Shown here: in pieces, positions 1 through 363 of the stretch | Layout of the letters: every line of letters starts with the position of its first letter | How positions within the stretch are numbered: the stretch's first letter is position 1 | NCBI RefSeq assembly: GCF_003334385.1 | Contig: NZ_QOWN01000191.1 | Source: Escherichia coli | Lineage (GTDB): Bacteria > Pseudomonadota > Gammaproteobacteria > Enterobacterales > Enterobacteriaceae | Strand: one strand, 5' to 3' | Length of the DNA: 363 bases | The notes under the pieces: generated by a model | Database searches by the model: none | What the model saw: only the letters and a program-made list of their open reading frames with translations | Told to the model about the DNA's origin: nothing | Program-made: the position numbers and the translations under genes

Positions 1-363
1 CTGCCTGATGGTGTGGAGACATACGGGGTGTGGGGACTCTCCCTGCCGTCACTGCGCCGTCGCCTGTTCCGCTGTGTCTCCATCCGGGAAAACACGGACG
101 GCACCTTTGCCATCACGGCAGTGCAGCACGTACCGGAAAAAGAAGCCATCGTGGATAACGGGGCCCGCTTTGAGCCGCAGTCAGGCACCCTGAACAGCGT
201 TATCCCACCGGCAGTGCAGCACCTGACGGTGGAGGTGAGCGCAGCTGACGGCCAGTATCTGGCGCTGGCGAAATGGGACACGCCGCGGGTGGTGAAGGGC
301 GTGCGCTTCAGTCTGCGCCTGACCAGTGGAAGCGGTGAGAACAGCCGCCTGCTGACCACCGCC
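1..363 (+). CDS. J: Internal fragment of a phage tail tip attachment / host-specificity protein (lambda gpJ-like central tail fibre protein); partial at both ends, frame +1
   Basis: Frame +1 has no stop codon across all 121 codons (the only TGA/TAA triplets fall in frames +2 and +3). Third-position GC is about 76% (92/121 by hand count), with CTG the dominant Leu codon, as in enterobacterial-type coding sequence. The translation contains RRLFRCVSIRENTDGTFAITAVQHVPEKEAIVDNGA and PPAVQHL...WDTPRVVKGV, which I recognise from memory as near-matches to the middle of lambda J (UniProt P03749). No start or stop is in the window, so gene boundaries are unknown. Not verified by a search. Confidence 0.85.
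   Translation, partial: MPDGVETYGVWGLSLPSLRRRLFRCVSIRENTDGTFAITAVQHVPEKEAIVDNGARFEPQSGTLNSVIPPAVQHLTVEVSAADGQYLALAKWDTPRVVKGVRFSLRLTSGSGENSRLLTTA
116..129. repeat. Copy 1 of a 14-bp perfect direct repeat (cggcagtgcagcac), intragenic and in frame; encodes (T)AVQH
   Basis: Exact string cggcagtgcagcac at 116-129 and again at 209-222. Flanking bases differ on both sides (a/c upstream, g/c downstream). Confidence 0.9.
205..363 (+). other. Probable N-terminal half of a fibronectin type III-like (Ig-like beta-sandwich) domain within the J-like protein
   Basis: Codons 69-121 read PPAVQHLTVEVSAADGQYLALAKWDTPRVVKGVRFSLRL... This follows the usual FN3 opening pattern: Pro-Pro start, a hydrophobic strand A (HLTVEV), a hydrophobic strand B ending in the conserved Trp (YLALAKW), then Pro (DTP). 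Lambda gpJ is known to carry FN3-like domains in its central region. The domain would continue beyond the window. Confidence 0.5.
209..222. repeat. Copy 2 of the 14-bp perfect direct repeat (cggcagtgcagcac), intragenic and in frame; encodes (P)AVQH
   Basis: Identical 14-mer, 93 bp (31 codons) downstream of copy 1, in the same codon phase (gca gtg cag cac in both). Confidence 0.9.

Follow-up and report, generated by a model that had tools for sequence, protein, structure and literature searches.

An in-frame fragment from the interior of the gene for tail-tip protein J in a lambda-like phage or prophage of Escherichia coli, located at the inferred hub-to-FNIII-1 hinge

The formation of a trimeric tail-tip cone by protein J (gpJ; NP_040600) of phage lambda and the binding of this protein to an outer-membrane receptor are known from experiment (PMC10721106, PMC11101478). 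Binding of LamB at the C-terminal receptor-binding domain of J twists the central straight fibre, flips the helical shaft and releases three strings of fibronectin type III (FNIII) domains (PMC11101478). Here we describe a stretch of E. coli DNA of 363 bases and 64% GC (hereafter, the window), which we identify, with a probability of about 97%, as an in-frame piece from within the gene that encodes the tail-tip protein J of a lambda-like siphovirus, carried either as an Escherichia/Shigella prophage or in a free phage genome.

Frame +1 of the window is without a stop over all 363 bases and encodes 121 amino acids (LPDGVETYGVWGLSLPSLRRRLFRCVSIRENTDGTFAITAVQHVPEKEAIVDNGARFEPQSGTLNSVIPPAVQHLTVEVSAADGQYLALAKWDTPRVVKGVRFSLRLTSGSGENSRLLTTA). 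The GC content at its three codon positions is 67, 50 and 76%, and the commonest first-position base is G, a pattern that is coding-like. However, given the length and GC content of the window, an open frame is weak evidence on its own, as at least one of the six frames is open in about 20% of mononucleotide shuffles (two or more in 1.6%), and the case therefore rests on homology. A phmmer search of all PDB chains with the frame +1 translation found residues 549-670 of the 1132-residue lambda tip attachment protein J with an E-value of 1e-49 and about 70% identity (PDB identifiers 8IYK, 8IYL, 8K35, 8XCG, 8XCI and 9E7M). The NCBIfam model lambda_TipJ (NF049904) is matched collinearly at its positions 549-670 with an E-value of 6e-68 and 229 bits; its cut-off of 1950 bits applies to the whole protein and is beyond the reach of any 121-residue fragment, and a full-length relative whose protein is identical over the window scores 2127 bits against it. 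Several PHROGs families of J, central tail fibre or host-specificity proteins are likewise matched, with E-values of 1e-43 to 1e-74. All protein matches in the PDB, PHROGs and NCBIfam lie in frame +1 on the + strand. Thus, the preliminary description, which had assigned the translation to the central region of lambda gpJ, a member of a known protein family, and had pointed to matches in another frame or strand as evidence against it, is borne out in each of these respects.

Its expectation regarding Pfam holds in part. The Ig_J family (PF24421), which corresponds to FNIII-1 of J, is matched with an E-value of 2e-19 by residues 61-120 of the translation, which align with model positions 1-60 of 104, the match being ended by the end of the window. 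The Phage-tail_3 family (PF13550), which had also been anticipated, has no match inside the window; in the full-length relative this domain occupies residues 331-492 and hence lies upstream, so that its absence here has no bearing on membership of the J family. The full set of Pfam domains in that relative consists of FNIII-A (86-207), Phage-tail_3 (331-492), Ig_J (609-712), Ig_J_second (714-816) and Phage_Tail_Tip (871-997). The segment is also under purifying selection as part of J, since the dN/dS ratios are 0.10-0.34 in comparisons with homologues of 71-96% nucleotide identity, the full range against 10 homologues being 0-0.34.

The coding fragment (bases 1-363, + strand, frame +1) corresponds to codons 549-669 in an allele of 1,176 codons, equivalent to residues 549-671 of lambda gpJ. 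We took the domain limits from the lambda structure (PMC10721106) and transferred them to the window through the alignment, which divides it, on the + strand, into four parts. Bases 1-63 encode the C-terminal end of the extra beta-sandwich ('OB') insert of hub domain IV (in lambda the insert spans residues 483-569, of which 549-569 fall here; PMC10721106), with 62% amino acid identity to lambda. Bases 64-90 encode strand beta25 of hub domain IV, LFRCVSIRE (lambda residues 570-578; PMC10721106), in which nine of nine residues are as in lambda and which is invariant across all 11 aligned sequences. [quoted passage not shown] Bases 181-363 encode about the first 60% of the FNIII-1 or Ig-like domain (PF24421), which is cut by the end of the window and is 62% identical to lambda. 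The receptor-binding domain is located well beyond residue 670 (PMC11101478), at least some 300 codons past the window. The preliminary description had likewise placed it well downstream, as the domains of the full-length relative also indicate; host range and receptor therefore cannot be read from the window.

The best match among E. coli sequences, at 99.4% nucleotide identity, is in NZ_CM129862, where the gene is annotated as 'gpJ: phage attachment tail tip protein J' with 1,176 residues. The two sequences differ at two positions, both synonymous third-position changes, so that the protein of the segment is 100% identical. In this record the segment corresponding to the window spans 15001-15363 within a gpJ coding sequence at 13357-16887, from which it follows that base 1 of the window is the first base of gpJ codon 549; the homologous lambda segment likewise begins at codon 549 of J. 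The gene order around it is tape measure, an M-like gene, L, K (a C40 peptidase), I and J, followed by tail-fibre genes. Among phage records, megablast matched 188, the best at 98.6% being Escherichia phage PhiR12_2_star, and the matched records include many Stx1- and Stx2-converting lambdoid phages; where matches are annotated, the names given are J, host specificity protein or tail fibre, and some records are without annotation at the matching place. PhiR12_2_star has the textbook order V-G-T-H-M-L-K-I-J, and the order H-M-L-K-I-J followed by a tail fibre is common to NZ_CM129862, PhiR12_2_star and lambda, in agreement with the lambdoid tail module proposed earlier. This allele class is common in Stx-converting and other lambdoid prophages of E. 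coli. The collections searched yielded no exact copy of the window, and a 135-nt core of it was absent from species-representative genomes and from IMG/VR.

A match is present in 3,194 of 5,426 complete E. coli genomes (59%), which carry it at a median of 2 places each and at 13 at most. Presence in only this fraction of genomes, often in multiple copies, marks the window as accessory DNA, which is what the preliminary description had considered probable. Of its proposal of a phage or prophage setting, the prophage part is supported in the nearest E. coli genome, where the element adjoins potB/potA/pepT and is therefore an integrated prophage; the window alone, however, is compatible with an integrated prophage as well as with the genome of a free phage, because phage isolates match it at 98.6%. 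We infer both the intactness of the whole gene and its prophage status from relatives. A small number of the matching places in the E. coli search (27 of 9,463) are on plasmids instead of the chromosome and may represent phage-plasmids or plasmid-borne prophage fragments. In the NZ_CM129862 locus, the region past the tail-fibre genes (19858-25965) carries cargo genes whose annotated products are an S6 family peptidase of 1,335 residues (SPATE-type autotransporter) and a protein with a YadA C-terminal domain. In PhiR12_2_star, a transposase and an ATP-binding transposition helper (an IS21-like pair) at 15828-18130 separate the tail-fibre fragments from the gene for tail-fibre assembly.

Defects are frequent among lambdoid prophages, and the window could accordingly derive from the decayed J gene of a cryptic prophage that makes no functional tail tip. 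The multiple copies of the segment per E. coli genome are consistent with such an origin, as is the frameshifted, incomplete portal gene in the prophage of the nearest relative, NZ_CM129862, which suggests that this prophage may itself be defective. The segment, however, shows neither a stop nor a frameshift, and the protein that it encodes is the same as that of the corresponding part of an intact 1,176-residue J, from which it is separated by synonymous differences only. The dN/dS ratios are well below 1 throughout, and the same allele occurs at 98.6% identity in phage isolates that are inducible and form plaques. On this evidence we regard decay of the gene as unlikely.

A second possibility concerns the opposite strand, where frame -2 is also free of stops over the whole window (bases 1-363, - strand). 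The preliminary description had spoken of one stop-free frame with coding bias; frame +1 is indeed open with a coding-like GC pattern, but it is not the only open frame, and the description itself mentioned a stop-free antisense frame when naming what would speak against it. In NZ_CM129862 the antisense frame runs for 210 codons without a stop, longer than anywhere else in the gene, and it is also open in PhiR12_2_star and phage 1717. This length, together with the rarity of two or more open frames among the mononucleotide shuffles, could suggest a real overlapping gene embedded in J. However, a stop is present in seven of ten homologues, including two phages at 94-96% identity as well as lambda, the translation matches no family in PHROGs or NCBIfam, and promoter-like sites number zero on both strands of the window. 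The openness is also expected from composition. A stop in frame -2 arises where TTA, CTA or TCA straddles two codons of J, and few third positions of J are T (14 of 121), by which such stops are suppressed; when the window is resampled synonymously, frame -2 is open in 27% of cases, and it is open in 12% of all in-frame stretches of 363 nt in the same J gene. Substitutions are in excess at third positions, which does not distinguish between +1 and -2, as these frames have their third codon positions in common. With stops in most homologues, no family match and openness expected about 12-27% of the time, we rejected frame -2 as a gene: an embedded gene is very improbable, and the openness of the frame is a chance by-product of composition. 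We would give hardly any credence to the more speculative proposal that the 210-codon frame is expressed as a lineage-specific overlapping gene of this allele class, or to its weaker alternative, in which the divergent FNIII-1 surface (62% identity to lambda) would have a distinct accessory role in binding the cell surface.

That the window encodes instead a J-like protein of some other machine, such as an F-type tailocin or the hub of a non-lambdoid siphovirus, can be set aside as exceedingly improbable, for although an F2-pyocin tail fibre protein gives a weak match at its residues 559-622 (E = 3e-6), the match to lambda J is stronger by more than 40 orders of magnitude, and the DNA matches at 94-99% are all J genes of lambdoid phages or prophages in E. 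coli.

The fragment of J thus identified lies in a region where two allele classes have recombined. Among E. coli genomes, identity to the window has two modes: 1,202 records lie at 95-99% and 1,305 at 60-80%. Using the sites that differ between the window and lambda, we observe that the Stx2c phage PV98-693 (201-569) agrees with the window allele as far as about alignment column 120 and with the lambda allele beginning at about column 129, the change falling in the most conserved stretch, AVQHVPEKEAIVDNGA, where the allele classes have 91% nucleotide identity. In phage 1717 (201-566), a short patch within the linker, AHFDGDQSG at columns 165-186, is of the lambda type. The junctions between the two classes are inside the window at about 120-190, near the boundary between the hub and FNIII-1, and we consider them to be ordinary lambdoid mosaic exchange between two allele classes near a domain boundary. 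At a larger scale, near-identical J alleles are found behind different head and tail-shaft modules: the NZ_CM129862 locus (1-7354) has an HK97-type capsid, head-closure and gp10 set, and PhiR12_2_star (1-5231) has a lambda-type Nu3/D/E/FI/FII/Z/U/V set. These differences behind J constitute mosaicism at the level of modules.

Other features of the window are few. The repeats found in it are short two-copy matches only, among them a direct repeat of bases 116-136 and 209-229 with a 14-nt exact core, CGGCAGTGCAGCAC. It encodes AVQH twice, once in the linker (ITAVQHVPE) and once at the start of FNIII-1 (PPAVQHLT), and both motifs are kept in all 11 aligned J sequences, including lambda; the repeat itself may be due to chance. 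A scan of the window for structured RNA with Rfam gave one lncRNA match at chance level, which scored 14 bits where the gathering score is 50 (E = 0.7). One terminator-like hairpin is present on the - strand (114..97), against 0.3 expected, which is not significant.

By homology with the solved tail tip of lambda, three copies of the J protein to which the window belongs would form a closed cone at the end of the tail, in which the last hub strand encoded in the window would continue the wall of the tail tube. Upon receptor binding, the freed FNIII strings would presumably swing out on the linker, as they do in lambda, perpendicular to the hub, and so open the tube for the exit of DNA. We infer this hinge and cone-closing role for the window-encoded part by carrying it over from lambda at about 70% identity. 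The window falls in a structurally understood part of J, between the hub and the FNIII domains, where this hinge would lie. Its value is mainly for annotation, as it marks lambdoid phage or prophage DNA, which is accessory and often multi-copy, and it says nothing on host range. No result obtained is at odds with its reading as a J fragment. The gene and its family are already known, and a solved structure at about 70% identity spans the exact segment; nothing new is hidden in it.

The F2-pyocin match noted above, weak yet significant, is to a tail fibre protein of solved structure and involves residues 8-74 of the translation (bases 22-222), which indicates that J has the region from the end of the hub to the linker in common with F-type tailocins. 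The trigger of HepS abortive infection maps to residues 902-933 of lambda J, in the central fibre (PMC13043305), and a link to it was dropped as these residues are outside the window. The baseplate hub protein pb3 of phage T5 gave no sequence-level match to the window among the searches made. It is similar to J in having a scaffold of four hub domains, after which come a linker and a pair of FNIII domains that swing outwards when the structure opens (PMC10721106). However, unlike in lambda J, the four hub domains of pb3 are contained in one protein and its hub domain IV is without the beta-sandwich insert; its FNIII domains are separated in the closed state (PMC10721106). Much closer is lambda gpJ itself, which belongs to the same family and corresponds in position (residues 549-670 of 1132), in the succession of the beta-sandwich insert of hub domain IV, beta25, linker and FNIII-1, and in its H-M-L-K-I-J neighbourhood. 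The two differ in that identity is about 70% at the amino acid and 71% at the nucleotide level, with a single-codon indel in each of two parts, the linker and FNIII-1, and the full-length J of the nearest relative of the window has 1,176 residues as compared with 1,132 in lambda. The closest relationship is with the gpJ proteins of E. coli lambdoid prophages and Stx-converting siphoviruses, for example those of NZ_CM129862 (WP_447311874.1), PhiR12_2_star (XSB41810.1), JLK-2012 and BP-4795, which share the frame of the window and are 92-99.4% identical to it in nucleotides and 93-100% in amino acids, the few substitutions that separate them being mostly synonymous.
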